DNA of 64,000 nt from a virus (IMGVR_UViG_3300042465_009257:32001-96000); one strand, 5' to 3'; numbered from the stretch's first letter, positions 7,670 to 58,523 are shown. Notes: generated from the sequence alone by a model not told the origin. Numbers and translations: made by a program.

Positions 7670-7701
7670 TAAAATTTCATAATTTAAGCAATTTACTGTA
7701 A
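7670..7701 (+). promoter_or_regulatory. class II promoter-like motif TAAAATTTC-N18-TGTAA (cassette 1)
   Basis: same motif and spacing found at 8 sites. Confidence 0.7.
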
Positions 7702-7711
7702 TAATACTTAT

Positions 7712-7858
7712 ATGAAATTAAAAACCGAACGCTATAACTTTGCTTTTTCAAAAGAAACAAGCGACAAAATTAAAGAAATTGCAGCGAATAAAACTTGGAA
7801 GTTTGCTACCGTGATTGAAAAGGCTATTGAACTATTTTACAGTAAAGAGTTTAAATAA
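7712..7858 (+). CDS. ribbon-helix-helix DNA-binding protein, 48 aa (MKLKTERYNFAFSKETSDKIKEIAANKTWKFATVIEKAIELFYSKEFK)
   Basis: manually translated; alternating YxFxF strand plus two helices; paralog of three other cassette proteins. Confidence 0.75.
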   Translation: MKLKTERYNFAFSKETSDKIKEIAANKTWKFATVIEKAIELFYSKEFK

Positions 7859-7914
7859 AAACTTTTGCTCTGACTTTATAGAATGATTTAAAATTTTGAA
7901 TATATTGATAATAA

Positions 7915-8844
7915 ATGAACAACTGGCCAAATTTAACGGATTCGGATAAGAAGGAAATGATTAGACTTAAAATTGAAACCTCAATTTCTATAGATACTTT
8001 AGCCAAAACTTATAAAGTTGACGAGATGGTTCTTTCTAAATTTTTGAAAAACAACGGAGTTAAAATAAAAAGCGGAAGATTTAGCCTAGAGGAATTTGTA
8101 AATAAAGCGAGGTCTGTCCACGAGAATTTTTACGATTATTCTCGGGTAGAATATACAAAATCGAATGAAAAAATTGAAATTATTTGCCCTGAACATGGAA
8201 TTTTTAATCAACAAGCTAATAGTCATTTGCAGGGGCATGGCTGTCCTCAATGTTATCACGAGAGAGCGGGTGTTCAATTTAAACTAAATCAACAAGATTT
8301 CTTAGATAAATCAACGAAAGCTCACGGGGATAGATACGATTATTCTTTGTCGTATTATAAAACAACCTTAGAAAAGGTAACTATTATTTGCCCGTTACAC
8401 GGAACGTTTTTACAGACCCCTAAAGATCATTTCCAAGGAAAGGGGTGTGCTATTTGTGCCAACCGATATAAATCCAACGGAGAACGTAAAATTTGTACAT
8501 TATTGGAGGAAAATCAAGTAATTTTCGAATTTAATAGCAGCTTGGGTTGTCGAAATAAGGATACGGGCCGCTTACTAAGATTCGACTTTTATCTGCCCGA
8601 ATTAAATATTGCGATAGAGTACGATGGGATACAACACTTTTTGCCTGTTAAAAGATGGGGAGGAAAAGAGGGCTTAGAATCCGGCCAAAAAAGGGATAGA
8701 ATGAAAGAGGATCACTGTGAATTACTTAATATATATCTTTTAAGGATTTCGTATCAAGAGGATATTGAAAAGAGTCTAATTAATTCAGGAATTATTTCTG
8801 CTGTCCGTATTCCAAACATTCTATCCGATCTTCTAAAGTCTTAA
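7915..8844 (+). CDS. free-standing endonuclease: HTH + two DUF723-like Zn repeats + PD-(D/E)XK/Vsr-like domain
   Basis: CPxHG...QGxGCxxC twice; RFDFYLPELNIAIEYDGIQH. Confidence 0.8.
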   Translation: MNNWPNLTDSDKKEMIRLKIETSISIDTLAKTYKVDEMVLSKFLKNNGVKIKSGRFSLEEFVNKARSVHENFYDYSRVEYTKSNEKIEIICPEHGIFNQQANSHLQGHGCPQCYHERAGVQFKLNQQDFLDKSTKAHGDRYDYSLSYYKTTLEKVTIICPLHGTFLQTPKDHFQGKGCAICANRYKSNGERKICTLLEENQVIFEFNSSLGCRNKDTGRLLRFDFYLPELNIAIEYDGIQHFLPVKRWGGKEGLESGQKRDRMKEDHCELLNIYLLRISYQEDIEKSLINSGIISAVRIPNILSDLLKS

Positions 8845-8956
8845 TTTTAGCATTTAAATCATGAACTTCTATGCCTTTAACGCAAATAAAAATTGCTACA
8901 GTAGAAACAATCGAAATAATAGTAATGACATCCCAAAAATTATTTACACTTCTCAT
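8792..8956 (-). CDS. small membrane protein (MRSVNNFWDVITIISIVSTVAIFICVKG...)
   Basis: manually translated 54-aa ORF with a TM helix; overlaps the nuclease tail-to-tail. Confidence 0.55.
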   Translation of the reverse strand: MRSVNNFWDVITIISIVSTVAIFICVKGIEVHDLNAKIKTLEDRIECLEYGQQK

Positions 8957-8959
8957 ATT

Positions 8960-9184
8960 TTAATTAGTTAATTTTTCAATTTTGAAAGATCCTTGCACAG
9001 ATTTTACTGCGTTGTCAAACTTAAATTCTACCGAATCCCCTAAAACCTCATAGTCTTTGACGAAATAAGTTTTTTCTACCTGCCCGCGACTGTCATAATC
9101 AGTAATAAGATAGCCCGTTCTGCCCAAATCTGTTGTTGAGCAAGAAAAAAGAAAAAGAAATGGAATTAATTTTAAATACTGCAT
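8960..9184 (-). CDS. small lipoprotein
   Basis: lipobox LFSC. Confidence 0.6.
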   Translation of the reverse strand: MQYLKLIPFLFLFSCSTTDLGRTGYLITDYDSRGQVEKTYFVKDYEVLGDSVEFKFDNAVKSVQGSFKIEKLTN

Positions 9185-9235
9185 AATTATTTTAAATGTA
9201 TAAAGTTGAGTTGAGTTGTTTGAAATTACAAATTT

Positions 9236-9535
9236 TTATTTATTCCTTAGTTCGTCCCGTTTATCAATTATGCTGTTCCATTCTTCGACAGTGACAATTT
9301 TACCTCCTGTTATATCGCCTGATACCATATCATCAGCACATTCACATTTGCAAAAATCATCTTCTTGCTCAATTATGCCTTCTAGCGCCTTCTTGCTTTG
9401 AATCGTTCGATTACCCTCGCAGTAAGTACAACTGCCGTGATTGCGACAACTATGATCCCAGCGCTTACTTTTTCGATAAGGTTCCCGTTTCTCTTTGCCA
9501 TGTTTGATTGCTTTGTCTAAGCTCATTTTATTCAT
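9236..9535 (-). CDS. conserved-type phage hypothetical protein (SCRNHGSCTYC)
   Basis: ORF track; Cys/His cluster. Confidence 0.65.
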   Translation of the reverse strand: MNKMSLDKAIKHGKEKREPYRKSKRWDHSCRNHGSCTYCEGNRTIQSKKALEGIIEQEDDFCKCECADDMVSGDITGGKIVTVEEWNSIIDKRDELRNK

Positions 9536-9717
9536 CTTTTCCAGTTAAGCGTTTAATTGCTTCTTTTTTCCGTTGTTCTTTATCCTTCAGCCATGCTTTT
9601 TCTCGCTTTTGATATCGTATGGCAGCGTTGATCATAAATATAAAATTCCAGGTTAAGAGGCATAGAAAGAAAATCCAGAAGATATAATCGAATGACATTA
9701 GATTTTTGGTTTAGTTT

Positions 9718-9972
9718 TTATTTGATTCGATCAGGATTGCCTAGATATTCAATTCCATTTGCAATAATTCTAGCTAGATATCTCATGCATGGTTGACATA
9801 CATCCTTTGCTTCATAAGTATTATCTTGAAATTTAGCATCCTTCGTAATGTCTGCCATTGGATTCTGGCTTGAGCAGTGAGTCTTTACTGCAAAGGATCG
9901 TGGAGCATCTTCCCATCCGCGTTGAGGCATTTCTTTGTCGCAGATATCGCAAATAATAGTTACTGTTCTCAT
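9718..9972 (-). CDS. small CxxC protein
   Basis: CDIC...CQPC. Confidence 0.6.
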   Translation of the reverse strand: MRTVTIICDICDKEMPQRGWEDAPRSFAVKTHCSSQNPMADITKDAKFQDNTYEAKDVCQPCMRYLARIIANGIEYLGNPDRIK

Positions 9973-10013
9973 ATTTTTATGATAAACGGTTTAGGATTTT
10001 AGGAGTAATAAAG

Positions 10014-10361
10014 TTAATTAGTTGTAATAACTTTTTTCCCACAGATTAAAACAGCAGGGGCTTTATGTACTGGCTCTCCAGACTCTTTCTCGAAAAAATA
10101 ATCAAAAAGATAGGGATTGTAACTGACTTGCGTGAGTTTTTTACAGTAATCGAAGCTTTCTGATTCAGTCCCGCAGATATAAGCATGAACGTTTTTCCTC
10201 TTTTGTTGTAATACACGTTCTCGTCCAGCTTTGGACACTCGAAAAGTAGCATTTTCCAAAGAGATAGAGTCAGCATGGCGAACCACTTTCCAAACCCCAT
10301 TGATCTTTTTCTGGACAGAGATTTTTTTCTTATGCAGGTTGAAGTAACAGCGAGTATCCAT
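10014..10361 (-). CDS. conserved-type phage hypothetical protein (YFNLHK...RERV...KNVHAY)
   Basis: ORF with upstream TTGCTT-N16-TATAGT promoter. Confidence 0.7.
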   Translation of the reverse strand: MDTRCYFNLHKKKISVQKKINGVWKVVRHADSISLENATFRVSKAGRERVLQQKRKNVHAYICGTESESFDYCKKLTQVSYNPYLFDYFFEKESGEPVHKAPAVLICGKKVITTN

Positions 10362-10455
10362 GGGAATACTATACAGCGGAAACTGAGAAAAGCAAGAAAT
10401 TTTTTGAATTAATTATTAATGACTCTGCAAAACCTCATTCTGAAGAGTGACTGAG

Positions 10456-10647
10456 TTATTCAGACTCTACTTTGGCAATCCATTCGTCAAGAAGTTTAAG
10501 ATCTTCTTTCTCTCGATTACAGAACTCCATTTCTCTTGATTCATACCCAAGAGTTTCAATCGCGTCTTGCCAAATTTTATTTTGTTCCCAAGCGTTGTAA
10601 ACTAAACTGTCAATGAGCGCAATGATTTTGTTTGATGGTTTGTCCAT
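10456..10647 (-). CDS. hypothetical protein
   Basis: ORF track. Confidence 0.55.
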   Translation of the reverse strand: MDKPSNKIIALIDSLVYNAWEQNKIWQDAIETLGYESREMEFCNREKEDLKLLDEWIAKVESE

Positions 10648-10846
10648 TTAATTTTTAATTAAAGATCATTGTTGCGATTATGCAATAAAATATGGCTATT
10701 GTTCCCAAAATGCTAAAAAATGCAATATTAGATGATCCAGTTAGCGCAATCATTACTAATGGTATTATTAGGAGAATGGCGAATATGCCTAGAGTGAGAA
10801 TCAAAGTTCTTTTGCTTAATTGTGGCATTTTCATATTTATTCTTTT

Positions 10847-11211: not shown

Positions 11212-11219
11212 ATCGGTCC

Positions 11220-11465: not shown

Positions 11466-11477
11466 ACTATGATTATA

Positions 11478-11795: not shown

Positions 11796-11854
11796 ACTAT
11801 GAATATACCACGCTCTCAGAAAAACGCAAATTATTTTTTGCGAAAATTGATTGT

Positions 11855-19220: not shown

Positions 19221-19342
19221 GCTTTTAATTTGTTTAAGATTTCCTCCCGCTTTTTATTCATATATTCCGCCAACTCAGTTCCCTCCAACTTATAACACTC
19301 CTCATGAACCGCGCCGCAGTATTGAGTTGTTAAAGGGATTAT
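19217..19342 (-). pseudogene. start-less 3' remnant homologous to the C-terminus of the GT at 20528..21331
   Basis: IIPLTTQYCGAVHEECYKLEGTELAEYMNKKREEILNKLKA* aligns ungapped, 14/41 identical. Confidence 0.75.
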
Positions 19343-19365
19343 ACTCCATTTCGCCCCGATGTCAA
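19338..19365 (-). promoter_or_regulatory. outward sigma70-type promoter TTGACA-N16-TATAAT at the left edge of cassette 2
   Basis: perfect hexamers. Confidence 0.7.
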
Positions 19366-19387: not shown

Positions 19388-19419
19388 TAAAATTTCCAAC
19401 TCCTAATTTTAAATTGTAA
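19388..19419 (+). promoter_or_regulatory. class II motif TAAAATTTC-N18-TGTAA (cassette 2)
   Basis: conserved motif and spacing. Confidence 0.7.
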
Positions 19420-19444: not shown

Positions 19445-19618
19445 ATGCAAAAAAGATTAAAAGACCAAGAAAGAATAGACCTCGTGTCTAAATATGAAAA
19501 CGGAATGAGTTCGTGCCAACTTTCGATTGAGTATGGAATCACGGATACAGCGATTCTGGGATTGTTAAAGCGTCGTGGGATCAAGATCCGGAAAAATTCA
19601 GATTATAAGACCAAATGA
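19445..19618 (+). CDS. small HTH protein, 57 aa (MQKRLKDQERIDLVSKYENGMSSCQLSIEYGITDTAILGLLKRRGIKIRKNSDYKTK)
   Basis: manually translated; ATGA overlap with the downstream nuclease. Confidence 0.7.
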   Translation: MQKRLKDQERIDLVSKYENGMSSCQLSIEYGITDTAILGLLKRRGIKIRKNSDYKTK

Positions 19619-20553
19619 AGAAAAGTCGCGTTGAATTAAATGATGATCAAAAAACAGAGATAATCACAGCATATGGAAATGGAGAGAAGATTCCGATGCT
19701 TAGAAATAAGTTTAATATTTCGGCAGAAAGAATTTCTAATCTTCTTAAGGATGCTGGAGTGAATTTACGAAAGCGCGGTGAATTACGTACGTATTCCATA
19801 AATCAATCTTATTTTGAAGAAATAGATACCGAGGATAAATCTTATTTCTTGGGCCTTCTCTATGCCGATGGCAATCAGGGGTCCGGCCCCTCCTCCAGAG
19901 TCAGAATTGAGCTAGCAGAGACTGATAAGGATATACTAGATCGATTTAATGATTGCCTCGATACAAATAAACCGTTATATTTCAGAAATCTTCGGGAGAA
20001 AAATCCTAATTGGCAAAATACCTATACACTGGAAATAAACAGTAAGAAAATTAGCGCAGATTTGCTTAATTGGGGATTGGTTCCAGCTAAAACTTTTAAA
20101 ATTAAATTTCCAGATTTTTTAAGAGAAGACTTAATCATTCCTTTCATTCGTGGTTATGTCGATGGAGACGGTTGTTTGTTTCGATCTTCTGTAACCATCT
20201 GCGGAAATGTGGAATTTTGCGAACAGCTTCGACAAATTATATTCGATTTAACAGGTATTAAATCAGCGTTAAGACTTCCCCAAAACCATCATCCAGACTT
20301 TAGAGTATTGATTATAGAGGGCGGCTTAAACGTCAAGAAGTTTTTAACTTGGCTTTATGGTGATTCAAAAATTCATATGGAAAGGCGTTATCAAAAATAT
20401 TTATCATTCCTTGAATGGTCTCCCAAGCCAAAGAAAAATCTTCTTCGAGGAAATGATGGGGATCTTATGGGGGCGGAAGAAAAAAGAATCAGAACAAATT
20501 CTCGCGCACGGGACCGATGGCAGAGAATTAAGAGCGAGAAAGTAACGAAATGA
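19615..20553 (+). CDS. free-standing LAGLIDADG homing endonuclease with N-terminal HTH
   Basis: YFLGLLYADG and FIRGYVDGDG motifs. Confidence 0.9.
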   Translation: MKKSRVELNDDQKTEIITAYGNGEKIPMLRNKFNISAERISNLLKDAGVNLRKRGELRTYSINQSYFEEIDTEDKSYFLGLLYADGNQGSGPSSRVRIELAETDKDILDRFNDCLDTNKPLYFRNLREKNPNWQNTYTLEINSKKISADLLNWGLVPAKTFKIKFPDFLREDLIIPFIRGYVDGDGCLFRSSVTICGNVEFCEQLRQIIFDLTGIKSALRLPQNHHPDFRVLIIEGGLNVKKFLTWLYGDSKIHMERRYQKYLSFLEWSPKPKKNLLRGNDGDLMGAEEKRIRTNSRARDRWQRIKSEKVTK

Positions 20554-22319: not shown

Positions 22320-22747
22320 ATACTAATACGAAAGACTACCTAAGGGATCACCCCTGTTATCTTGTCGCGGCAATAATCCTCGCTTCAGAGGGAATTCCTG
22401 ATATCCTTAAACAGATTTACGGAAATGAGAAAAACGCATTTGATGCTCTGCAAATTGCGCAAGTTTATGCTGGGAATATGAGAGTCCATCAGCCATCTGA
22501 TTTTCCTATTTACGTTTCCCCCAAAGGGGATATTACTAAAATTCCAGAACGTTTAGCTGGCCTGATTCTCTCTGAGACTGAATTTTTTACCGCTCTCGTT
22601 TGTGACCGTTCCCCTTCTGTAATTTATGATGAATCTTGGCTTGCAACTCTACCTAAAGCATCACGATTAAAACTAAAGGAAAAGTATAAAGAGTTAACTA
22701 TTAGCCATAAGCTTCCTAATCTTGCGCCTTCCCATCCCAGCCATTGA
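22316..22747 (+). CDS. hypothetical protein
   Basis: ATGA overlap with the upstream gene. Confidence 0.6.
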   Translation: MNTNTKDYLRDHPCYLVAAIILASEGIPDILKQIYGNEKNAFDALQIAQVYAGNMRVHQPSDFPIYVSPKGDITKIPERLAGLILSETEFFTALVCDRSPSVIYDESWLATLPKASRLKLKEKYKELTISHKLPNLAPSHPSH

Positions 22748-23194
22748 GTGGTCGCCCCTAGTAAGCTTCTCCTTTGAAAAATAAACCTTCATAATAGATT
22801 TTCTTTGATAAGGTAAGATTAGCCCTAAGAAGTGATCTAAATCTGCTCCAATTCCAGGATCGCGGTCATAAAAACTTGGTTCCGAAACAGAATCTAATGG
22901 AAATTCATTAAATTTGGGTTTGTTTTTCTTATAAAATCCAGTCATCTGATTCAGAATCACCCAAGTAGCGAAAGTTATAAACTTTGATTTTTTATCTGGG
23001 TCAAACCTCATCGCGGCTCTCTCAAAAGCAATCCATCCTTCTTGGATATAATCGTCTAAATCATTACGCCCTTGAGAGAAAGAAATAGCCATTTTCATGA
23101 TAATTCCTTTATTGGCCGCGACGAGTTTCTCAAAAATCCGATTTGATTTCGTTTCTTGATATTTCGCTACTAAGGATTCGTTCGTTTCTGACAT
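22694..23194 (-). CDS. RNA polymerase sigma70-family factor (region 2)
   Basis: DDYIQEGWIAFERAAMRFDPDKKSKFITFATWVI matches the region 2 consensus. Confidence 0.85.
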   Translation of the reverse strand: MSETNESLVAKYQETKSNRIFEKLVAANKGIIMKMAISFSQGRNDLDDYIQEGWIAFERAAMRFDPDKKSKFITFATWVILNQMTGFYKKNKPKFNEFPLDSVSEPSFYDRDPGIGADLDHFLGLILPYQRKSIMKVYFSKEKLTRGDHSMAGMGRRKIRKLMANS

Positions 23195-25585: not shown

Positions 25586-27574
25586 TTATGCCGCGTTTTC
25601 CCCGCTTGTCAATTTAAAATTTGTAGAATTTGGATTAAACTCTTGGAGGTCGCACCCGTTGTGAATAGCTCCGCGCCAAGTTTGCGGGGAAATCCAAACA
25701 TCTACCCATTTTTGATGATTGCGTGTCCCTTCCCAAAGTTCAAAATGTTTCACGCCAGTATATGGAACAAATCCAGTAATATAGTCTAGATGTTGGTAGA
25801 TTTCTACATATTGAGGCAAACAACATACATAAATATCCCATTCTGAAACTGGGTAAAGTTCTCGGAGACGATCTAGAACTGTTAATCCAATATAGGAATC
25901 TCCGTAGTCGCCAGACATGTCCCACATCAGTCGTTTTTTACCATTATCTTTGAAAAATTCAGAAGGATCAAAGGGTTTGCCCATTTTCTGATCAACCATC
26001 TTTTTGGACTCCTCATAAATTTGTTGGCGAGTCGTTCCGCTTGCAAACCGCTGCGTTATTGTCTTAAAATCTTGATGATCCTCATTAATTTTATTTCCAA
26101 AAAAGTTCCAAACTAATTCTTTAATGAATTCTGGTTCATCTGTAGCAGTTGGGAAGGGCGCGTTTGGATTTAACCTCTCTGTTCTGAAATCAAAAGAATA
26201 ATTTGAAATTGGCAATTGATCTAAATATTCCTCAATAGTTTTTAATGTTACATCTGGATGAATCGTTTTCATCGCCCATTCACGGAACTTTAATCCTTTT
26301 TGTTTAGACTCTTCTGGATTATTATAGACCTCCTCCATAAAATCGCAGATGGATTCAGTAGAAGGGACTGCTTTTTTATAAAGGCTTCCCATCTCTTTAT
26401 CAAAAGCATAGGTGATAGGGAAAACAGCATTTGATTCCATAAACATCTCCCCAAAAGAGTAGTCAACGGTAGCTGTATAAACTCCAGCGAAAGCGGCCTC
26501 GGCCACTGTCAGTTCAAATCCTCCTGAATTAATTGGAGCGACATATCCGTTAAAAAGATTATAAAGTTCAACTAAATCATTTTCTAGTATTCCTTTTTCA
26601 ATCGAAATATTCTTAAGGGCTTTAGCTGTGCCGCACTTTGGACAATCATTCTCCGGTCCTTCAATTTCTTTCAAAACTGTCTCGCCGCAACTATGACAAG
26701 TGTGGGCGCACAAAACGTCTTTTGGGTCTAATCCAGCATGTTCGACTCCTAGCTTTAAATTCCAGCCTTCTAGAAAATTAGTACAAAAAACGAATTTAGA
26801 TTTTACGCTTGGATTACGGGTTTGGAATTCTTTAAGCCCATCAATAGCTGCAATCATTCTTTTGCGCGTTTGGTTACGACTGACGAATCCAAAGACAAGA
26901 CAGTCTTCATCAATTCCGTATTTTTTCCTGACGTTTTTTTTCTCTTCGTCATCGAATACACGATAAGGACCAACTTCCATTAAACATGGCCAAAGCCCCA
27001 CATGAGAATGACCCAAGCGGTGAAGATCTTTTTGAGCAAAAGAAGACTTAACGAAAAAGCGTTTTGACTTTTTTACTCCATCTAATAGCATTTCCATGGC
27101 AGGAAGTGAATCAACTGGCGTCTGGATGATGGTATTAAATTTATCCCACCACTCTGTTTCCCAGTAAGGAACGAAAGCTTTATCAGAGAATTTGCGCAAA
27201 ACAGACATCGCCCAAATATCCTCTACAGCTAAGAAAATATCTGGTTTAACTTCCTTAAGAACGCTTTCAATCCGCGCCGCTCCATAAGCAACCATCCTTT
27301 GCAGGTTGGGATCATGATTGCCATTACTATCCTTTGCTAAACCAACGAAAACTGATGATTCATCAGCAGGAATTCCTCCGTAACATTTCCATGGACGCGC
27401 TCTTAGTTTTGGGCTTTCTTCTACTGCCCCTTGGGCAAACTCATGAACTTCCCATTTTTTTGATCCATCTGGATTTTTACGGGAATAGAGGTAGCGAAGA
27501 AGAACTTTGAGATTTTTTGAAAAACCTGTTTGAAGATCAGCAGATGTACTGGAAATAAGAATTTTACGTGGCAT
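25586..27574 (-). CDS. large GT-B (GT4-like) glycosyltransferase with Zn ribbon and C-terminal GT9 N-domain-like region
   Basis: VSRNQTRK, GGFELTVAEA, CHSC...CPKC, GDYGD...LRELYP; start MPRKIL after a TTGACA-N17-TACAAT promoter. Confidence 0.8.
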   Translation of the reverse strand: MPRKILISSTSADLQTGFSKNLKVLLRYLYSRKNPDGSKKWEVHEFAQGAVEESPKLRARPWKCYGGIPADESSVFVGLAKDSNGNHDPNLQRMVAYGAARIESVLKEVKPDIFLAVEDIWAMSVLRKFSDKAFVPYWETEWWDKFNTIIQTPVDSLPAMEMLLDGVKKSKRFFVKSSFAQKDLHRLGHSHVGLWPCLMEVGPYRVFDDEEKKNVRKKYGIDEDCLVFGFVSRNQTRKRMIAAIDGLKEFQTRNPSVKSKFVFCTNFLEGWNLKLGVEHAGLDPKDVLCAHTCHSCGETVLKEIEGPENDCPKCGTAKALKNISIEKGILENDLVELYNLFNGYVAPINSGGFELTVAEAAFAGVYTATVDYSFGEMFMESNAVFPITYAFDKEMGSLYKKAVPSTESICDFMEEVYNNPEESKQKGLKFREWAMKTIHPDVTLKTIEEYLDQLPISNYSFDFRTERLNPNAPFPTATDEPEFIKELVWNFFGNKINEDHQDFKTITQRFASGTTRQQIYEESKKMVDQKMGKPFDPSEFFKDNGKKRLMWDMSGDYGDSYIGLTVLDRLRELYPVSEWDIYVCCLPQYVEIYQHLDYITGFVPYTGVKHFELWEGTRNHQKWVDVWISPQTWRGAIHNGCDLQEFNPNSTNFKLTSGENAA

Positions 27575-27625
27575 TGTGTATAGAATTGTAAGATATTTTT
27601 TAGACTTTGTCAAATTATTTTCACA

Positions 27626-27657
27626 TAAAATTTCCTTCTACCAGTTTCCGCTTGTAA
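27626..27657 (+). promoter_or_regulatory. class II motif TAAAATTTC-N18-TGTAA (cassette 3)
   Basis: conserved motif and spacing. Confidence 0.7.
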
Positions 27658-27668: not shown

Positions 27669-27824
27669 ATGAGAACTAAAACTAAAACTGAAAAATATAC
27701 ATTCACCTTTGATAAGCCTACCGTAGAACTTTTGGCTAGAATTGTGGATTTTACTGAAATGAGTCAAATTAAAATTGTTACTCGCGCTATTGAAGATTAC
27801 GCGAAAAAGAAAGGGGTCGAATAA
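27669..27824 (+). CDS. ribbon-helix-helix protein, 51 aa (MRTKTKTEKYTFTFDKPTVELLARIVDFTEMSQIKIVTRAIEDYAKKKGVE)
   Basis: paralog of the other cassette RHH proteins. Confidence 0.8.
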   Translation: MRTKTKTEKYTFTFDKPTVELLARIVDFTEMSQIKIVTRAIEDYAKKKGVE

Positions 27825-27825
27825 G

Positions 27826-28917
27826 ATGGATATTGAAGACGAAGAGGAGGAAGATAACCGCCAAAGGTGTATCTACAAAATAACTTGTCTCTTAAACGGG
27901 AAAATCTATATCGGTCAGACTGTTCATTTTGACAAAAGGATGACTCAGCATAAAAATAATAATGGAAAGGCTACTACGATGTATATTGATCGGGCTATTG
28001 AATTTCACGGAGTCGATAATTTTGTTAACGAAATTATTTGTAATTGTCGAAATCTGACTCACGCTAACGAAATGGAGAAATTTTTTATCGCCTTCTATGA
28101 TACGTTTGAAGGGGATGGATACAACTTAACCGAGGGAGGGAGTAACGCAAAAAAATCCCTTTCGGTGAAAAAGAAGATGTCAAAAGCAAAACAAGGCTGG
28201 AAACCTGCATCCTCGAAAAGACTCTTTCTTGGCGTTTCCACACGGAAGGGAAGTAAATCTTTCACCACCACGGTATCTGTCGGATTAAGTAACTCAAAAA
28301 GTAAAAACTTTCCTACTCAAATTGAAGCGGCAGAAGCGTATGATAAGGTTGTTTTGTTTATTTTTGGAAACGATGCGGTTTTAAACTTTCCTGAGAAGCT
28401 AGATGATTATTTATCATTGGATCTTGAATTATTCTACAATTTATTTATTTTTAACAATTCGCCGAGATATAGTAATTTTGTTGGAGTTACAAAAAAGAAA
28501 GATAAATTTGGAAATTTAAAATGGACAGTTCTTTTCCAAGGGAGGCTCCGTAAAATTTTGTACGCTCAAATAAGAGAAACTGGAGGGGATTTCATTCCAT
28601 TAGAATTTTTCGACACTGAAATAGATGCTGCAATCTTTTCTGATAAATTTATTTTTTACTTTGATCTACCATGTCGCTTTAATTTTCCCGAAATTATTGT
28701 AAATCTATCGAAAACAGAACTAGCTTCAATTTTTGCAGAAAGGATAAAAACAAGATATTGTGCATATACTGGAGTCAGCTTTAGCCGTGGGAAATGGATA
28801 AAATTTTATACCGATAGCAAGGGTCAGCATAGAACTATCCGGGGTGGCCACGCTACCGCTGATGAGGCTCATATCGCTCGTCAAGAGTTCCTTCTGCAAA
28901 ACGAAAAATCCCAGTAA
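27826..28917 (+). CDS. GIY-YIG homing endonuclease with AP2-like repeats
   Basis: CIYKITCLLNGKIYIGQT, GYNLT.GG, EAAEAYD...LNFP. Confidence 0.9.
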   Translation: MDIEDEEEEDNRQRCIYKITCLLNGKIYIGQTVHFDKRMTQHKNNNGKATTMYIDRAIEFHGVDNFVNEIICNCRNLTHANEMEKFFIAFYDTFEGDGYNLTEGGSNAKKSLSVKKKMSKAKQGWKPASSKRLFLGVSTRKGSKSFTTTVSVGLSNSKSKNFPTQIEAAEAYDKVVLFIFGNDAVLNFPEKLDDYLSLDLELFYNLFIFNNSPRYSNFVGVTKKKDKFGNLKWTVLFQGRLRKILYAQIRETGGDFIPLEFFDTEIDAAIFSDKFIFYFDLPCRFNFPEIIVNLSKTELASIFAERIKTRYCAYTGVSFSRGKWIKFYTDSKGQHRTIRGGHATADEAHIARQEFLLQNEKSQ

Positions 28918-29773: not shown

Positions 29774-32700
29774 TTAATTAAGGGCCGCGCCCTCAATATT
29801 TTGGGATTTGCCAAGAGCTTTTTGTTCTTTCTCTTGATGTTTATTCAAATCGGAAACGCGGCTGTAGATTTTAAGAGCTTGAATTTCAGCCAGATCAATA
29901 AAAATTAAAGGATCTTCGCCGCCGCCCTTCTGACCACGGATATAAATCAACTGTCCTTCTTCCGGTTCGCCAAATTTCGCCAAATAACTCAGCCATTTAT
30001 CTCCTGTAAATAATGACTCAATATTACCTGTCTCATCTGCCAAAGTGATTTTTGCATATTTATTCCCAGATTTTTTAGCTGTGCCGGTTTTTATCTCTTT
30101 AACCTCCGCAACGACTTGGAGTCGCTCTTTTTCATAAAGTTCAGTTTTAATCTGTCCGATTTTAGAAAGGTCAGGATATTCGTCAAAGAGTTCTGAAAGG
30201 GTGATACTAGGGCAGTATCCGAGGAGCTTCTTTTCGAAGAGCCATTGGGAGACCATGGGATTTTTGGAGTTCTCTTTGTAGATTTCGAAGTAGCTGGCGC
30301 AATTTTTACGGAGAGTAGCCAAGCGTGATTCTTTGCCGATGGGTTTACCGTTCAGGCCAATCCATTCCAAATAACTTTTCATCATAGAAATTAGATCAAA
30401 ATTATGAGACTTCCCATTTTCAAGACAATAGTTCTGTTCTTTTGTTGTAAGCTCTTTCCAGATTTTAGAACAGAGAACGGTTTTTTGTCTATCGAATGGA
30501 GCAAGATCCTCCAAAACCCCACATTCAATTAAAGCTGAAATAACAGTGGAGTTAACCTTTGATTGCTGTGCCGCTTGGAATACTTCAAATAAATTTGCAG
30601 TATCTTTTTGAATAAAGCTTTGAATATTGGCAATAGATTTTTCTGAAATCCCTTTAATAGCTTCTAATCCAAAACGGATATTCGGTCCCTCTAGTTTGAA
30701 ATCTCTTTCAGATTTAGTCAGTGATGGGGGTAGAAGTTTCAAATTAAAAGATGGCATCTCTTGGACCAAGATGGACACTTCTTCCGCTTGGTCTTGCTTA
30801 TCTTTTGATAAACGTAAAGCTTCCAAAAAGAAATGACTGGGATGATTAAACTTTAAGTATACACTTAAAGCACATAACTTGCTATAACAAAAACTGTGAG
30901 AAAAATTGAAAAGATAATCCGCTGACATCAACGCTAGACTCCATAATTTCTTTCCAGCCTCAATATCAATATTATTCTCTGCACATTTGTCATAAATTTT
31001 TTGCTCCCACTGTGCAATCTCATCAACCTTCTTTTTCCCTACGATGCGCCGAATATCATCAGCTTCGCTTAAACTAAAACCAATTTTTACAAAAAGAGCC
31101 ATGAGAGATTCTTGATAAATCATAACTCCTCCAGTCTTATTCAAAATTTCATCAAACAAAGGATGAACACTTGGCTTATCTCCAACTCCATTAACATAAT
31201 CTGCATACTGATCCAAAAAGACAAAACTTCCAGGGCGGCAAATAGCCAATACCGCCGATAGATCGTTCATCGATTTTGGTTTAATTTTATTTAATCCTCT
31301 CTTTGCGCTATCGCCAGAAATCTGGAATAGATTAGATGCACTTTCTAAATTTTGGAGATGACAATAGATATCGTCCCAACTTTCATAATTAATCTTAGAA
31401 ATATCAATCCCTAATGTCTTTACGATATTATCAAAAAGAGTAACTGATTGTAATCCTAAAAGATCAAGTTTGATTGTTGAAATTTCTGCGACATGAGCAT
31501 CTGCCGAAGTTACAATTTCTCCATCATTTCCATACTGCAAAGGCATGAAATCATTAAGAGGGTAATAAGAAATAATATAAGCTGAGGCGTGACTCCCGAA
31601 ATTTTTAATACAATTCTGTAGCTTCTTCACGCACCCGAATATCTCTGGATTATTATCTGCAAATTGTTTTATCTTCTCAGATTCTTCATACGCGGCTTCA
31701 GGTCTAGCGACTTTACCGAATTTAACAGGAATTTCATCTGAATAAACTTTAACCTGCTCTTCTGATAATCCACCGATAACTTTCCCAGCGTCTTTTAATA
31801 AAGCCTTTGTAGTTTGTGTGTTATAGGTCGAAAGTTTTGCGAATTTACCTGGATATTTCCCAGTCAAATATTCAATTACTTTATCTCTAGCTTCGGCCCC
31901 GTAATCGCAATCAATATCGCATAAAGACCCTGCTAAAAAAGTAACTCCATCAATAATTGAAGTTTTTGCGCGGGAAAGAGAAATAAATCTCTCGAAATAT
32001 AATCCTTTATCAACTGGGTCTACATCTACGATTCCCACAAGATAATTGATTAAACTCCCTGCACTAGAGCCTCGTCCGAAGCCATGAGCCAATTTATTTT
32101 TACGAGCAAATCTCATCGTCATCCATACGAGTAGAATATAAGAATCAAAACTTGTTTTATCAAGCATATCTAGCTCATACTCAAATCGTTGGCGATATTC
32201 CTCTTGTCTATCTTTACTTATGTCGCCATTATTTACTTTTTCTTTATATCCATGTCTGGATAAAATACGAAGAGTTTCAATATTCGTGGCACCCTCTGGA
32301 ATATTAAATTCCAATCGATCTTCCTCATCTAACTTAAACTCAGGCAATCTTACTCCTGGTAGAAACAAATCCAAAGGAGTCTCAAACTGCTTTTCAAAAT
32401 CAGACTCTCCATCGCCCAAGATATCCTTATTTTCATTCCAACTCTCTAAGCAAAACTCTGCTGAAGAGAAAAACTCCATATTTGGCTCTTCGATTGTATT
32501 TCCACTACCAAAAGATTTTCTGTCCATTAGTTTCCGCGCTTGGAAATAAGTAAGATCTGCACGGTTCTTGTAATAACAGGTTTTAACCTCGACAGTCTTC
32601 AATCCAAACGCCTTTGCATAATCCAAAGTCTTCTCCCTGATAATCCTATCAAAGAACATATCGCAATCTTCAAGAAACATGAAGGGTTGAATCTTACCAA

Positions 32701-39420: not shown

Positions 39421-39452
39421 TAAAATTTCAAATTGTTTTACGCTCCCTGTAA
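39421..39452 (+). promoter_or_regulatory. class II motif TAAAATTTC-N18-TGTAA (cassette 4)
   Basis: conserved motif and spacing. Confidence 0.7.
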
Positions 39453-39464: not shown

Positions 39465-39620
39465 ATGAGATTAAAAATTGTTACCGAAAAATATCACTTC
39501 ACCTTTAGTAAGTCATTATCAGAATTGTTTAAGAGAATTGTTAAAGAGACTGACCTTTCTCAAATTCGCGTTATTGAGCGTGCCATCGAAGATTTCGCGG
39601 TTAAGAAGGGGGTAAAATAA
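39465..39620 (+). CDS. ribbon-helix-helix protein, 51 aa (MRLKIVTEKYHFTFSKSLSELFKRIVKETDLSQIRVIERAIEDFAVKKGVK)
   Basis: manually translated; close paralog of 27669..27824. Confidence 0.8.
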   Translation: MRLKIVTEKYHFTFSKSLSELFKRIVKETDLSQIRVIERAIEDFAVKKGVK

Positions 39621-39621
39621 T

Positions 39622-40620
39622 ATGAAGAAGGGTCGTGGAAATTACAGGCTAGACAATTATGTTTATCTATACTTAGATAATCGGAAGCTTGGTAAATGGG
39701 AATTTAGAGACTGGACTTTTCTTTATCAGCCATTTTATGTCGGACGCGGTCTTGATGATAGAATTAACGCACATACAAAGCCGTCTGAACTTTCTAAACC
39801 TTTTCGGAAATCTAGGATAATAAATAAAATAAGACGAGTTCTAGGGGAGGAGGTTATCCGATTTAAACTTTATGAAGATTTATCTTACCAAGAATCGGCG
39901 TTCCTCGAAAAGGATATAATTGCATTTTTTGGGAGAGAGAAAAATGGAGGTATTTTGGTTAATCTCTCTAAGGACGAATGGGACCGCCCGGCGAAAGAAC
40001 GAACTTCAAAAACCTCAAATTCAAGAGCGTTACCCACGAGTAAAAGAGTTAATCAATATTCTTTAGATGGAGTTTTTATAAAAACTTGGGAGTATTTAAC
40101 AGAAATAAGAAACTCTCTGAGAGGGAAAAGTCGAGGGATTGAGTATAGAATCAGAGAATGTTGCAGGGGCGAAAGAGATAACTGTGATGGTTTTATTTGG
40201 AAATATGAGGGGACTTCCCCTTACTCTCCTCCTCGCATTCCTCAGCCACACTCTAAACCTGTTTTTCAATATTTCAATGGGAATTTTGTAAAAAGTTATG
40301 AATCTGGTGTCGAGGCGGCATTACAAACCGGATTAAATCATAAAGCTATATCACTATGTTGTCTAGGAAAAACTAAGACATCAGGAGGTTTTCGGTGGTT
40401 TTTCGAATATGTAGGAGAATCTATACCTCCTCTTGCAGCCACTGTTCGAAAACTATACGGAAGAGGTGTCAACTGTTTCGATTTGGAAATGAACTTTCTT
40501 GAAAAATATATAAATATCAAGGATTTTTCAAGATCCAACTCTATAAATGAATCTGCGGGCTATCGCGCTGTAAATACTGGTTTACCCGTTAAGGGGTTTT
40601 ATGTAAAATACTCTTCATAG
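39622..40620 (+). CDS. GIY-YIG-family endonuclease with NUMOD1 repeats
   Basis: YVYLY...FYVGRG..R..H; VNQYSLDG.FIKTW, I..CC.G..K..GGF.W. Confidence 0.85.
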   Translation: MKKGRGNYRLDNYVYLYLDNRKLGKWEFRDWTFLYQPFYVGRGLDDRINAHTKPSELSKPFRKSRIINKIRRVLGEEVIRFKLYEDLSYQESAFLEKDIIAFFGREKNGGILVNLSKDEWDRPAKERTSKTSNSRALPTSKRVNQYSLDGVFIKTWEYLTEIRNSLRGKSRGIEYRIRECCRGERDNCDGFIWKYEGTSPYSPPRIPQPHSKPVFQYFNGNFVKSYESGVEAALQTGLNHKAISLCCLGKTKTSGGFRWFFEYVGESIPPLAATVRKLYGRGVNCFDLEMNFLEKYINIKDFSRSNSINESAGYRAVNTGLPVKGFYVKYSS

Positions 40621-54261: not shown

Positions 54262-54264
54262 TCT

Positions 54265-54858: not shown

Positions 54859-54895
54859 AATTATTTTTTATTATTCTCTATTTTAGATATAAATT

Positions 54896-55987
54896 TTAAA
54901 AATCCAAAAGACAATCAACTGTATTTTTCACAGAAAACTTATCTGCCAAAGCTTTTCCAACCTCTGGATCTGGAACATCCATATTTAAGGCTTGTTCCAT
55001 TCCTGCAATTCCAGCGTCCTCATCCCAAGTAAAAATATTACCTTGGTTGTATGGCTGGCCTTTTTGGAAAAACATTCCATCTGTTGCGTCTTCTTTTCCA
55101 GAAGGCTCAACAAAAATAGAGTTCGTATCAGAACAATAGTCAGTATGAGCATGAGCACGTAGAACTACGCCTCTTTTGCCTAAACAGCGAGTTTGTAACA
55201 ATGGTAGTCCAAACCCTTCTCCACCGCTTAGTCCTAGATCGATATCAATTACATTTAGAGCTTGGTTGAACTCTTCCTTTGTAAGAAAACCAAATAGATT
55301 TACATTCCAAGGAAGCTCTCTTCCAATTTCCCGCTCAATAATTTGCTTGTGTGCTGCAATATGATTTTTAGGGTCTATTCCGCCCATGATGAATGGATTA
55401 AAGACATGGCAATGTAGCCGATATTTCTTATCCCCTCCAAAGCGTTTTACCCAAGCTCCGATTGTCTTGGTCGTCCACTTGCGCTTTTCAAGTTTGCCTA
55501 AAACTGAGAAGATTGTGACATCTTCAAGGCCCTTTCGTGGGGCATCTACGTGAGAAAACAGACTGGCGTCAAAGAAGTTAGGAGTTACGCCAGCCTGGAG
55601 ACCTTTAGCCTCAAAAGTTTGTTTAGAAAAATTCGATGGAACTAGAATCCTCGAATACTGAGCCATGATATTCTTTTCAGTATCCGTAATGGAGTCGATT
55701 TCATGAACTGTATAAAGAGTATTTATATCAGACAGTCTCGATTGGCTACCATTAATGTGCCAAACCTTAATTGCTGGTTCAGACTTTTTATAATTAGTTA
55801 ATGCTTTTCCACTGCAATACTGGAACCACTGTGGAAACCCTTCTGGTAAATTGGCATATCCAAAATCAGGATTTCCAATAATGAAGATATTCGGGGTCAA
55901 ACCTCTTTTAAAAAGTTCAACGGCAATACCCATTCCGACACTGCCAAGGCCGGTTTGATTTAGAGGGAGTTCAATACTAAACGTCAT
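54896..55987 (-). CDS. GT4-like glycosyltransferase
   Basis: VPSNFS, GKLEKRK, GEGFGLP. Confidence 0.8.
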   Translation of the reverse strand: MTFSIELPLNQTGLGSVGMGIAVELFKRGLTPNIFIIGNPDFGYANLPEGFPQWFQYCSGKALTNYKKSEPAIKVWHINGSQSRLSDINTLYTVHEIDSITDTEKNIMAQYSRILVPSNFSKQTFEAKGLQAGVTPNFFDASLFSHVDAPRKGLEDVTIFSVLGKLEKRKWTTKTIGAWVKRFGGDKKYRLHCHVFNPFIMGGIDPKNHIAAHKQIIEREIGRELPWNVNLFGFLTKEEFNQALNVIDIDLGLSGGEGFGLPLLQTRCLGKRGVVLRAHAHTDYCSDTNSIFVEPSGKEDATDGMFFQKGQPYNQGNIFTWDEDAGIAGMEQALNMDVPDPEVGKALADKFSVKNTVDCLLDF

Positions 55988-56007
55988 GGTTGATTCTACT
56001 TAAAGTT

Positions 56008-56514
56008 TTAGGATTGGTCAATCTCTGTTTCTTCGATTTGAATGGTTTTGTCAAACTTTTTGATAAGAGCAAAAGATGAATCTAATCCAAATAAAGTTTC
56101 TGCCCAAGTTGAAATCCAGCCTTCAGTATTTTCAAGGGTTTCCCAAGAAGGGAGGTATAAAACTTCAGGAGGTCCATGCGGCTCAAAAACTTCAAAGCAT
56201 TGAATAATCCAATCCATTCCTGGTTTTAGAGAAGTGAAAATCCGCGCATCTTCTTCCATCGCTAAACTTTCTAAGTTGAATACTGAAACAGTCACAGTAA
56301 ATTTCTCATGCTGATCCTCAATCAATTGCGTCATCACCTGATATCGTATTCCACCATCAATAGATACCAAAAATGGTTCCCGATGGGAGAAACAGGCTGC
56401 ACGGACTAGGTTGGATTGAGACATTTGTTTTTTACGATAAACGCGATTATTGGACTTGTCAATGGAATATATAATGGAAAACCTGCGATAAGGCAAATCC
56501 CGAGAGATAGCCAA
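56008..56514 (-). CDS. hypothetical protein (probable start MSQSNL)
   Basis: ORF track. Confidence 0.55.
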   Translation of the reverse strand: MAISRDLPYRRFSIIYSIDKSNNRVYRKKQMSQSNLVRAACFSHREPFLVSIDGGIRYQVMTQLIEDQHEKFTVTVSVFNLESLAMEEDARIFTSLKPGMDWIIQCFEVFEPHGPPEVLYLPSWETLENTEGWISTWAETLFGLDSSFALIKKFDKTIQIEETEIDQS

Positions 56515-56702
56515 AGATTATGGCACAATTGGCATTTCCACAAGTTGAAAATTAAATCTGCACAAATTTTTTCAGCGGCGCGACGACTTTGCATCCAAAT
56601 CAGAAGCCTAGTTCTGAAATCTTCAAAAAGTGTAGACTCATGGGTTACAAAATTTAAATAAGACAGTAAAATGCCTACGCAAATAATTAGTTCTAAATTC
56701 AT
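56406..56702 (-). CDS. DUF1360-like membrane protein
   Basis: LFEDFR, LWKCQLCHNLW, TM helices. Confidence 0.55.
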   Translation of the reverse strand: MNLELIICVGILLSYLNFVTHESTLFEDFRTRLLIWMQSRRAAEKICADLIFNLWKCQLCHNLWLSLGICLIAGFPLYIPLTSPIIAFIVKNKCLNPT

Positions 56703-57388
56703 ACATCTTGTAAACCTTCTTTTAGCTCCGAGTCAACCCATTTTTCCATTTTTCTCACCATCTCGCCGCCTTCTTTCCACAAACCAGAATTTTCCTTCAT
56801 TACACGTTCCACCTCTAAACGTGGAATCGACTCTCCATTCTCAAATTTGCTAAAATCATGCCAGCGGAATTGAACATCAGCAGCTTTGCGGATTAGTGGG
56901 TCATTTTTCTCTTCCTCGCTGTTCGCTGGCTCTAGAACATGGAATTGCCCATACCAGTCCTTGCTGTCATATCTTTCAACGTGGACGATTTTCCCACCAT
57001 TAGATTTTACAAATCCAAGCTCGTCGCCGCCGCCAAATTCCGCAAAACGCAAATCCGTAATAAATCTTACTTGCGGTCCTTCTGGGGAAAGGAGAGTATC
57101 TCGGATTTTATTCAACCAATACTGCCCCTTACTATCATTTCTGCGGAGCTTGCCATATTGAACAAGCAATGGCCGAACCCTTGTCTTCTCTTCAGTAACC
57201 TCGGTAAACGCCGAAAATCCAAACTTATCAGTTATAAAATGGTCCAGGTCTCTCTTCAATTCGTCGGCGAAAGCCCATCGCCCGCAGGTGATTCCTTCTT
57301 CTTTGAGAAAATCAGAGGCGAATCTGTAAAAAGAGTCCTTGCCCGATCGCCCGACCCCCGAAAGGGCTATAATTTTAAATGATTTCAT
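56699..57388 (-). CDS. deoxynucleoside monophosphate kinase
   Basis: SGVGRSGKD, FADELK, RPLLVQYG, ITDLRF; start MKSFK 6 nt after TATAAT. Confidence 0.85.
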   Translation of the reverse strand: MKSFKIIALSGVGRSGKDSFYRFASDFLKEEGITCGRWAFADELKRDLDHFITDKFGFSAFTEVTEEKTRVRPLLVQYGKLRRNDSKGQYWLNKIRDTLLSPEGPQVRFITDLRFAEFGGGDELGFVKSNGGKIVHVERYDSKDWYGQFHVLEPANSEEEKNDPLIRKAADVQFRWHDFSKFENGESIPRLEVERVMKENSGLWKEGGEMVRKMEKWVDSELKEGLQDV

Positions 57389-57524
57389 TCCTTTATTATA
57401 GGTGGAAACGAAAGAAAAAGTCAACCGACTGTCTCAAAATGATTATTTTCGCGAAAAAAAATGGTTGAGGCTTTCGGATTTGACCAAAAAACGGGCAGGA
57501 AAAGAATCATTAATAATTTAAAAT

Positions 57525-57556
57525 AAATTGTTCCCTTTTCTTTACCATTCCTGTAA
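57525..57556 (+). promoter_or_regulatory. class II motif variant AAATTGTTC-N18-TGTAA (cassette 5)
   Basis: TTC-N18-TGTAA conserved. Confidence 0.6.
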
Positions 57557-57570
57557 TTAAACATATAATT

Positions 57571-57729
57571 ATGAATCACCGAATTAAAACTAAACGCTAT
57601 AATTTTTGCTTTGACCCGAAAATTGACGAACTCTTGAAAAAAATTAAAGCAGAAACTTCAATAGGATTAACGAAAATTGTGGAGTTAGCTGTTGTTGATT
57701 TTGCCGAAAAGAAAGGAGTTTCTTTATGA
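57571..57729 (+). CDS. ribbon-helix-helix protein, 52 aa (MNHRIKTKRYNFCFDPKIDELLKKIKAETSIGLTKIVELAVVDFAEKKGVSL)
   Basis: manually translated; paralog; ATGA overlap with the nuclease. Confidence 0.8.
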   Translation: MNHRIKTKRYNFCFDPKIDELLKKIKAETSIGLTKIVELAVVDFAEKKGVSL

Positions 57730-58523
57730 TCGGTGTCGTTTTTAACATGAATATCGAATCTCTTGCGATTTGCCCAAGAACCAACGGAATTTACAAAATC
57801 ACAAATACGAAAACAGGAAGATTCTATATTGGCCGAGCAGAATACAAGAAAGGTTTTTTTCGCCGGTGGTATCACCATAGGTGGCAACTTAGAAAAAATA
57901 TCCATGAAAATCCTCATTTGCAAAACTCTTATAACAAATATGGAGAGTCTTGTTTCACCTTCGAGATTCTTGAAATTAAAGACTATGGAGATCCGTTAAT
58001 AGATCTAGAGTCAGAATATATCATAAATTTAAAAGCCATGTACTTTGAAGACGGGTATAATCTTACGAATGAAAGGTTTGCCGCAAAATATCCTAAAATA
58101 TACAGAGAAAATCATCATAACTCAAAAGAATTTGAACTGCTTGACCCAGAAGGAAATTTAATTAAAGGCAGGAATTTAAGTCAATTCTGTGAAGAACTAG
58201 ATGTGGGCGTAGGAGCCATGTGGGATGTCATCCACGGAGATAGAAAATCCTACAAAGGATTCAAATCTCCCAATCCCGAATTTCACGTAGTTAAAAAAGA
58301 GTATCGCTTGCTCTCGCCCGAAAAAGAATTGTTCGTATTTGACAACGCCGCAGAATTCGCGAGAAAGATAGGGGTAAACAAACGTTCTATACACAAAGTA
58401 TTAAAAGGGGAAAGGTCTAATGCCGAGGGCTACCATCTTGAAAATCCATTACCAGAACATCAAAGAAATCTTGATAATTATTTCAATAGGAAGCATCTCT
58501 CTGATCGAATCAACTTTCAATGA
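57726..58523 (+). CDS. GIY-YIG homing endonuclease with two C-terminal DNA-binding repeats
   Basis: GIYKITNTKTGRFYIGRA, R..H..L..N.H.N..LQ, E, GYNL. Confidence 0.9.
   Translation: MIGVVFNMNIESLAICPRTNGIYKITNTKTGRFYIGRAEYKKGFFRRWYHHRWQLRKNIHENPHLQNSYNKYGESCFTFEILEIKDYGDPLIDLESEYIINLKAMYFEDGYNLTNERFAAKYPKIYRENHHNSKEFELLDPEGNLIKGRNLSQFCEELDVGVGAMWDVIHGDRKSYKGFKSPNPEFHVVKKEYRLLSPEKELFVFDNAAEFARKIGVNKRSIHKVLKGERSNAEGYHLENPLPEHQRNLDNYFNRKHLSDRINFQ

Follow-up and report, generated by a model that had tools for sequence, protein, structure and literature searches.

Small genes for ribbon-helix-helix (RHH) DNA-binding proteins were found at the head of homing-endonuclease cassettes in the 173,358-bp genome of an environmental phage (IMG/VR record IMGVR_UViG_3300042465_009257, rated 100% complete, 39% G+C), and they are considered here as candidate autorepressors of these cassettes. 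The window, i.e., the whole stretch of 64,000 nucleotides that was analysed, comprises bases 32001-96000 of the record; coordinates in the lists below are window positions unless marked as genome positions. Most genes lie on the minus strand, which is broken by short plus-strand islands. Five of these in the window had been singled out in an original prediction made from the sequence alone; they are labelled c1 to c5, L-numbers being used for other contigs or loci, and they and their open reading frames (ORFs) were recovered at the coordinates first given. The observation itself turned out to be stronger than claimed, with seven paralogous RHH genes of 46-55 aa in the genome, four of them inside the window. 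Of the interpretation attached to it, the RHH identity, the link to nucleases and the modularity held, and the notion of a cassette-specific promoter was lost. The genes of the five islands are as follows.

7712-7858, plus strand: c1 RHH mini-gene, 48 aa; hidden Markov model (HMM) of the family, E 1e-23, and weak PHROG matches to Arc-like repressors.
7915-8844, plus strand: c1 nuclease, 309 aa; DUF723/treble-clef zinc-finger repeats and a tentatively assigned C-terminal Vsr-like nuclease domain.
19445-19618, plus strand: c2 small ORF, 57 aa, with a helix-turn-helix (HTH).
19615-20553, plus strand: c2 LAGLIDADG homing endonuclease, 312 aa; LAGLIDADG_3 E 1.8e-7, phrog_4645 E 2.9e-52.
27669-27824, plus strand: c3 RHH mini-gene, 51 aa, whose KKGV-type tail codons form a Shine-Dalgarno (SD)-like sequence for the nuclease.
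27826-28917, plus strand: c3 GIY-YIG (+AP2-like) homing endonuclease, 363 aa from its ATG; GIY-YIG E 4e-9, phrog_314 E 8e-26.
39465-39620, plus strand: c4 RHH mini-gene, 51 aa, the protein used in the dimer model.
39622-40620, plus strand: c4 LEM-3-type GIY-YIG + NUMOD1 homing endonuclease, 332 aa (Pfam, PHROGs).
57571-57729, plus strand: c5 RHH mini-gene, 52 aa; Pfam RHH_3 E 3e-4, slightly short of the curated cut-off.
57726-58523, plus strand: c5 GIY-YIG + NUMOD-like homing endonuclease, 265 aa (Pfam, PHROGs).

The proposal that the small ORFs of c1, c3, c4 and c5 are paralogous RHH proteins was borne out, their identity to the c4 protein being 41-59%. A profile of the family (49 members) matched CopG (1b01), its closest solved relative, over the full length with an E value of 2e-5, followed by the archaeal RHH protein ORF56 (2k9i, E 1.3e-4); RHH_3 of Pfam was matched by 14 of the 49 members (best E 4.5e-18) and RHH_1 by six. 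Taken individually, the window proteins are weak against Pfam, c5 alone giving the match listed above. Conservation in the N-terminal strand is centered on R/K9 (45/49) and on the inward-facing F12 (42/49) and F14 (36/49), and the outward positions 11 (N/T/S/H) and 13 (T/A/V/S) are variable and polar. The strand aligns with R4/T6/T8 of CopG, so that positions 11 and 13 fall on residues that contact bases in CopG, and the outward pairs of the four window proteins do differ in the manner first described (N/A, T/T, H/T and N/C). For the RHH pair x1 and x2, dN was 0.12 against a dS of about 2.5, a value that is saturated; judged by such divergence, the RHH ORFs are under strong purifying selection.

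A dimer model, which the original prediction had suggested as a check, was calculated for the c4 protein and scored 0.70, against 0.00 for the best control; of 30 proteins solved as pairs of one chain, 20 attained the mark for this score, and of 23 solved as single chains, one did. Contacts agreed to 100% between runs, with a pLDDT of at least 84 for the partner chain, and residues 9-13 of the two chains ran antiparallel around residue 11 (contacts 11-11, 12-10 and 9-13). The RHH proteins are thus predicted by the model to dimerise via the canonical antiparallel beta-ribbon; the pass may stem from likeness to solved RHH dimers, and it speaks to that likeness rather than to binding. In size, the proteins of this phage are close to CopG (46-55 aa vs 45 aa), and those of the window (48-52 aa) consist of the RHH core and a tail of 3-10 residues, with no partner-binding extension.

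When an HMM of the paralogs was run over every ORF of the genome, it returned six strong members, two of them beyond the window at genome 5765 and 9921, and a distant seventh on the minus strand at genome 170958-170818. The genes at 5765 and 9921 each lie 5′ of a GIY-YIG nuclease, and a gap of 1 nt separates the seventh from the downstream gene of a 381-aa protein whose C-terminus is HNH-type and which matches an endonuclease VII PHROG. For 7/7 RHH genes of the phage, then, the RHH gene is the first gene of a nuclease cassette, the partners being five GIY-YIG, one DUF723/Vsr-like and one HNH-like nuclease. The ORF track shows the c3 RHH solely as an 82-aa frame with a GTG start, and three of the RHH ORFs are shorter than 60 aa, consistent with their reported absence from that track. 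ORFs of less than 60 aa, missed by routine gene calling, can evidently form the conserved core of a mobile module.

As to the nucleases, the families originally named were supported by Pfam and PHROGs for c2 (LAGLIDADG), c3 and c5 (GIY-YIG), c4 (GIY-YIG with NUMOD1) and the DUF723 part of c1, and the PD-(D/E)XK label given to c1 stays tentative. The c1 protein matched several PHROGs annotated as homing endonucleases, among them phrog_559 (E 4e-55) and phrog_9084; for its C-terminal domain the Atlas gave DUF2726/DUF559/AbaSI-like leads and Pfam a DUF2726 match at E 0.07, a search of the PDB by sequence gave no match, and the single-sequence AlphaFold model (pLDDT 34) was unusable. The small ORF of c2 was considered as a member of the RHH family and rejected, being an HTH protein unrelated to the four RHHs. 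It resembles the HTH at the N-terminus of the LAGLIDADG nuclease that it precedes (29% identity, E 1e-6) and is therefore a nuclease module that was either duplicated or split.

Beyond this phage, 1.84 billion protein representatives were searched exhaustively with the profile (E<=1e-3), which placed the family in only 48 clusters, all of them 45-70 aa in length except one of 108 aa. Genomic contexts were obtained by looking up eleven clusters and by scanning JGI metagenome contigs. This neighborhood check, another that had been called for at the outset, showed the homolog directly 5′ of a nuclease in 11 of 12 informative external contigs; in these 11 independent contigs the two genes are co-directional and overlap or abut. 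The nuclease partners were the following.

L007: LAGLIDADG.
L008, L071, L072 and L078: LEM-3 GIY-YIG/NUMOD1.
L010, L012 and L013: HNH_3, with or without AP2.
L016: an AP2-type relative of the c3 nuclease.
L073: T5orf172 (weak match).
L076: classical GIY-YIG.

The remaining context is that of P0030, a distant RHH_3 member (L017-L021) from another type of phage, which stands between two oppositely oriented HNH genes and is not co-directional with them, and whose neighbors include dUTPase_2 and DUF722; one further contig was too short for its context to be judged. The family is thus found almost exclusively directly 5′ of homing endonucleases, and of at least five types of them. A scan of viral_contigs with the RHH alignment gave no match, a pattern scan of metagenomes gave four loci, two of them from the same phage, and tblastn of a neighboring 675-aa protein against the phage database gave none. 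In distant relatives, recognized by 34-42% identity in one neighboring protein, neither an RHH of this family nor a small ORF 5′ of the homing endonucleases was seen, and RHH cassettes were not found in the relatives G001-G005.

Each island of the window is preceded by a promoter-like motif, which had originally been taken as a shared cassette signature.

7670-7701, plus strand: c1 late-type promoter motif, exact TAAAATTTC-N18-TGTAA; 39.7 bits by position weight matrix (PWM), with the ATG 10 nt past TGTAA.
19388-19419, plus strand: c2 late-type promoter motif, exact.
27626-27657, plus strand: c3 late-type promoter motif, exact.
39421-39452, plus strand: c4 late-type promoter motif, exact.
57518-57556, plus strand: c5 late-type promoter, degenerate; PWM 15.2 bits.

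The motif was said to be common to all five islands, which is correct for c1 to c4, where it is exact, and has to be relaxed for c5. At two mismatches or fewer it has 8 matches against 3.3 expected, five of them exact and all five 5′ of plus-strand units, and the form AAAATTTC-N18-TGTAA occurs exactly 13 times across both strands of the genome. With the PWM, 30 sites were found in the genome, compared with 0-1 in shuffled sequences, and on the main strand the motif lies 5′ of large genes in the 104-172-kb block, including those for the tape measure and a tail-fibre-like protein. With about 30 sites genome-wide, including non-nuclease structural genes, the motif cannot serve as a mark of the cassettes, and it is read as the phage’s general late-type promoter (TTTC-N18-TGTAA class); it is also conserved 5′ of the cassettes in related contigs. 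A sixth plus-strand island provides a control, in that it carries the same motif in front of other genes.

21825/21833-22747, plus strand: control island with the same exact motif and no RHH gene; its two ORFs, of 148/164 aa and 143 aa, do not encode nucleases.
22694-23194, minus strand: phage sigma factor, 166 aa; phrog_351 E 4.8e-18.

The 148/164-aa protein of the control island is coiled-coil-like, with a weak sigma-factor PHROG match (phrog_21612, E 1.7e-5), and the 143-aa ORF belongs to no family; the island converges on the sigma factor gene, whose product possibly reads the late-type promoter class. A divergent, near-consensus sigma70-type promoter (TTGAC[A/T]-N16-18-TAnnnT), on the opposite strand and pointing away, lies within 170 nt of 7/11 islands, compared with about 0.05 expected per 170 nt (window 7560-7600, 19330-19360 and 27540-27580; genome 5670, 9810 and 13300). 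It was considered as a part of the cassette and dropped, as non-RHH islands have it too and about 52 copies occur on the main strand; these promoters probably serve to resume transcription of the main strand past each antisense island. Taken together, the divergent and the cassette promoters make up a region that an RHH protein could control on both sides.

A single late promoter for cassettes and structural genes would allow an RHH protein that recognizes promoter-proximal sequence to act genome-wide, and the RHH gene might be seen as cargo, i.e., a regulator acting in trans on late promoters of the phage, on host genes or on genes of co-infecting phages, which the nuclease just spreads. Homing endonuclease cassettes are known to carry flanking DNA (PMC2988022), and no cassette-specific operator was found. 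We nevertheless regard this as unlikely: seven diverged paralogs, each with its own nuclease, are hard to fit to one function in trans, the RHH gene is always promoter-proximal and coupled to the nuclease, and cassettes that have no promoter have no RHH gene either.

The RHH start codon lies only 10-18 nt past TGTAA and has no Shine-Dalgarno sequence, so the RHH mRNA would have almost no leader. At the other end of the gene, the junctions were as described at first, with a 1-nt gap in c3 and c4 and an ATGA overlap in c2 and c5, the gap in c1 being 56 nt. In 11 of 18 RHH cassettes, the KKGV-type tail codons (AAGAA(A/G)GGGGT-like; RHH 3′ ends at 27800-27826, 39596-39622 and 57702-57726 in the window) provide an SD-like sequence 10-16 nt 5′ of the nuclease ATG. 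This plausibly accounts for the conservation of the tail, which may be kept for the ribosome-binding site of the nuclease and not for the protein. Such an arrangement would also be expected if the small ORF were only a leader, bringing ribosomes to the nuclease start by way of a peptide that has no function of its own: its ATG, which has no SD sequence, follows the -10-like element at 10-18 nt, and the nuclease start overlaps or abuts its stop codon. That explanation is hardly credible, however, in view of the strong purifying selection on the amino-acid sequence, the RHH pattern conserved over 48 clusters, the confident dimer model, and the separate SD-like sequence that the nuclease has at those 11 junctions.

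The idea of a modular front end was upheld by the discordance between RHH and nuclease similarities and by the extent of the DNA similarity between cassettes, which spans the promoter to the nuclease start. The RHHs of x1 and x2 are 76% identical and precede unrelated nucleases; those of c4 and L007 (69%) precede a GIY-YIG and a LAGLIDADG nuclease, and those of c4 and L076 (78%) an LEM-3-type and a classical GIY-YIG nuclease. The reverse is seen with c3 and L016, whose nucleases are 40% identical and whose RHHs share just 32%. In the pairs x1/x2 and c4/L007, DNA similarity starts with the promoter motif, takes in the RHH ORF, where synonymous changes are numerous, and collapses at or just 5′ of the nuclease start codon. 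The discordant similarities and this breakpoint at the RHH/nuclease junction indicate that the promoter and the RHH gene form a unit which recombination has joined to different nucleases.

An insertion scar was recognized at c5, where the cassette is flanked by two kinase sequences.

56699-57424, minus strand: complete kinase gene, on the other side of the c5 insert.
58510-58746, minus strand: kinase 5′ fragment, a 78-aa ORF that duplicates the start of the complete kinase gene (70% over 64 aa).

The two copies have diverged in DNA and each has its own TTGACT-N18-TAyAAT promoter; being bracketed by the duplicated kinase 5′ ends, the inserted block at c5 is defined as promoter, RHH gene and nuclease gene. 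Just past this region lies a 526-aa ORF (58765-60345, plus strand) with no Pfam or PHROG match. Presence or absence in related phages, also proposed as a check, was followed in related contigs, and the cassette sites differed: the L008 cassette is flanked by homologs of two window genes, one at about 2825 and one at about 13144, and at the second of these positions this phage is free of a cassette; L007 carries at 1171-2233 a cassette (the RHH gene related to that of c4, with its LAGLIDADG gene) that adjoins the homolog of the window gene at 6307-7038, near the c1 site; and L016 has its cassette at the c3 site. The c1-site region (window 6307-8844) may be an insertion hot spot for different cassettes. 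With nucleases of recognized homing families, a presence and position that vary, and the scar at c5, these units look like free-standing homing-endonuclease cassettes.

A census of the genome gave 14 homing-endonuclease-like genes. Seven have the promoter and an RHH gene; two have the promoter and an HTH mini-ORF, namely c2 and the ORF at genome 13412; two have the promoter alone (one at 29933, for a LAGLIDADG nuclease, and one on the minus strand at 160337, for a NUMOD1 protein); and three are GIY-YIG genes inside late operons, co-directional with them, that have neither the promoter motif nor a small ORF. The cassette at genome 13412-14811 (L059:412-1808) is antisense as well, with an ORF of about 77 aa, HTH-like at its N-terminus, coupled by ATGA to a 389-aa LEM-3-type GIY-YIG/NUMOD1 nuclease; its front ORF represents another type of small DNA-binding front gene, unrelated to the first. 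The promoter-less genes are the following.

Genome 146481-145204, minus strand: promoter-less GIY-YIG gene within the late/structural block.
Genome 149819-148689, minus strand: promoter-less GIY-YIG gene within the same block.
Genome 154689-153721, minus strand: promoter-less GIY-YIG gene within the same block, 64% identical to the c5 nuclease over 261 aa.

That the three promoter-less GIY-YIG genes have no RHH gene, although one of them is so close to the c5 nuclease, indicates that the RHH tracks the cassettes with a promoter of their own and not a particular nuclease protein. This favors a transcriptional role and argues against an obligate protein partner, be it as an antitoxin or as a targeting subunit. 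If the RHH were a direct inhibitor that binds the nuclease in the manner of a type II toxin-antitoxin system, the gene order would fit, since in many such operons a small RHH gene comes first and overlaps the gene of a toxic enzyme. However, the protein is only a 45-50-aa RHH core with its short tail and has no toxin-binding extension, the folds of the partners are unrelated, so that there is no one-to-one pairing of antitoxin and toxin families, and a close paralog of a partner nuclease manages without an RHH; such inhibition is therefore very improbable.

Scarcely better placed is a DNA-site accessory or protector, an RHH that would recruit or stimulate the nuclease at its target, or would shield the carrier genome at the target or the resident allele. 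Variable DNA-contacting residues would suit site-specific protection, and pairs of an RHH protein and a nuclease with such a logic exist in conjugation systems, where RHH proteins of the TraY/NikA type recruit or stimulate relaxases. Here, a single RHH subfamily goes with five unrelated nuclease types, and RHHs that are 76-78% identical are found with different nucleases; RHH specificity therefore goes with neither the nuclease nor its target. The nucleases moreover have DNA-binding modules of their own (NUMOD1, AP2, HTH), and the 64%-identical paralog of c5's nuclease does without an RHH. An accessory of this kind appears decidedly unlikely.

What is left as the most likely role, and one to which we give somewhat better than even chances, is that the RHH protein would be an autorepressor of its own cassette. 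This reading is based on the CopG-like fold, the position as the first gene, the link to cassettes with their own promoter, the variability of the DNA-contacting residues, and three precedents (I-TevI, IS605 Arc and CopG). The cassette would then be a free-standing homing-endonuclease unit with a portable 5′ expression module, in which a copy of the late-type promoter is followed 10-18 nt on by the RHH gene and, through an overlap or a 1-nt gap, by the nuclease gene. An RHH dimer would bind an operator in or close to the promoter of its cassette and shut the cassette off after a short burst, which would limit the nuclease dose and also the antisense transcripts that enter the essential operons on either side. 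Through the variable outward residues of the strand, every paralog would recognize a different operator, and as many as seven cassettes could share one genome without cross-talk. In functional terms, it would be a split-gene counterpart of the autorepression of I-TevI at its late promoter.

Several results weigh against autorepression. A search for operator symmetry in 13 promoters of RHH cassettes and 17 non-RHH promoters of the class revealed no excess of inverted or direct repeats in the former, be it over the latter or over shuffled sequences; the mean inverted-repeat arm was 6.2 bp at the RHH cassettes and 5.6 bp at the others, and a dyad of 8-9 bp that brackets the -10 element was present at x1 and x2 only (shuffle p ~0.1). 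The RHHs of c4, L076 and L007 have identical outward strand residues, yet no obvious common sequence was found in their promoter spacers. Four homing-endonuclease cassettes of the phage have the same promoter and no RHH gene, two with HTH mini-ORFs and two with neither, and the homing endonucleases of the distant relatives, which have no small upstream ORF, imply that a regulator is no general requirement.

A bolder extension of autorepression, which we hold to be possible and rather doubtful, would make the promoter and the RHH gene a portable, self-limiting “expression socket” into which homing endonucleases of any fold are swapped at the RHH/nuclease junction. Rapid divergence of the three DNA-contacting strand residues, along with the operators, would render the sockets orthogonal, and many antisense cassettes could thereby be tolerated in one genome. 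If true, it would add a new layer to the organization of phage homing elements and supply, ready-made in nature, a set of tiny repressor/promoter pairs orthogonal to one another.

Among known systems, CopG (RepA) of plasmid pMV158 (PDB 1b01/2cpg), a 45-aa RHH autorepressor, is the best match of the family profile among solved structures and is of the same size. In the copG-repB operon, CopG is the first gene and the second product is a DNA-cleaving enzyme. The differences are that the downstream gene of CopG encodes a replication initiator, that its context is a plasmid and that its operator is known, whereas none was found for the cassettes described here. The C proteins of restriction-modification (R-M) systems, with which the cassettes had been compared at first, are similar in that a small DNA-binding protein is co-transcribed ahead of a nuclease gene and controls the timing and the dose of the nuclease. 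They are HTH proteins that act alongside a methyltransferase, which protects the DNA, and at low dose they mainly activate; the controller here is an RHH protein, and the cassettes consist of two genes with no methyltransferase.

Phage T4 provides a comparison for the nucleases. I-TevI is expressed from a late promoter and repressed by a DNA-binding module at that promoter, which limits its expression (PMC2988022), the repressor in that case being the DNA-binding domain of the nuclease itself, whereas here a separate, exchangeable RHH gene would serve. Like the present cassettes, the free-standing seg and mob genes of T4 are GIY-YIG or HNH genes inserted between or into conserved genes, with late or middle promoters of their own or none, and they include translational coupling in mobE and an antisense orientation in segD (PMC2988022). 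They have no dedicated regulator gene, and seven are promoter-less; promoter choice, RNA structures, translational coupling and self-repression by the nuclease are the means of control described in the T4 review (PMC2988022). In the phage described here, by contrast, most cassettes run against the direction of the operons around them and begin with the RHH front end.

A further parallel comes from IS605 transposons, where Arc, an RHH micro-protein, binds and represses the tnpB promoter (bioRxiv 10.64898/2026.09.24.754181). There, too, an RHH protein is found inside a selfish element, controls a nuclease gene and is often missed by annotation; the element, however, is a TnpA/TnpB transposon in cellular genomes, whereas the neighbors here are homing endonucleases and ordinary phage genes, and no family match to TnpA or TnpB was obtained for any scanned RHH neighbor. 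The arrangement had been called possibly undescribed, and no RHH regulator of phage homing-endonuclease cassettes was found in the literature; the same preprint, of 2026, mentions in passing, and does not analyse, that Arc homologs also adjoin homing endonuclease genes (bioRxiv 10.64898/2026.09.24.754181). That the arrangement, a selfish nuclease whose probable RHH controller is encoded in cis, is new for phage homing endonucleases is thus almost, though not entirely, correct.

Should autorepression prove true, the very small, diverged RHH/promoter pairs would constitute a test set for the evolution of RHH DNA specificity, and the control would help to account for a phage's tolerance of 14 nuclease genes, of which many run antisense to essential operons. 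Phage homing endonucleases would then join R-M systems, plasmid replication modules and IS605 transposons as selfish genes that carry their own dose control.

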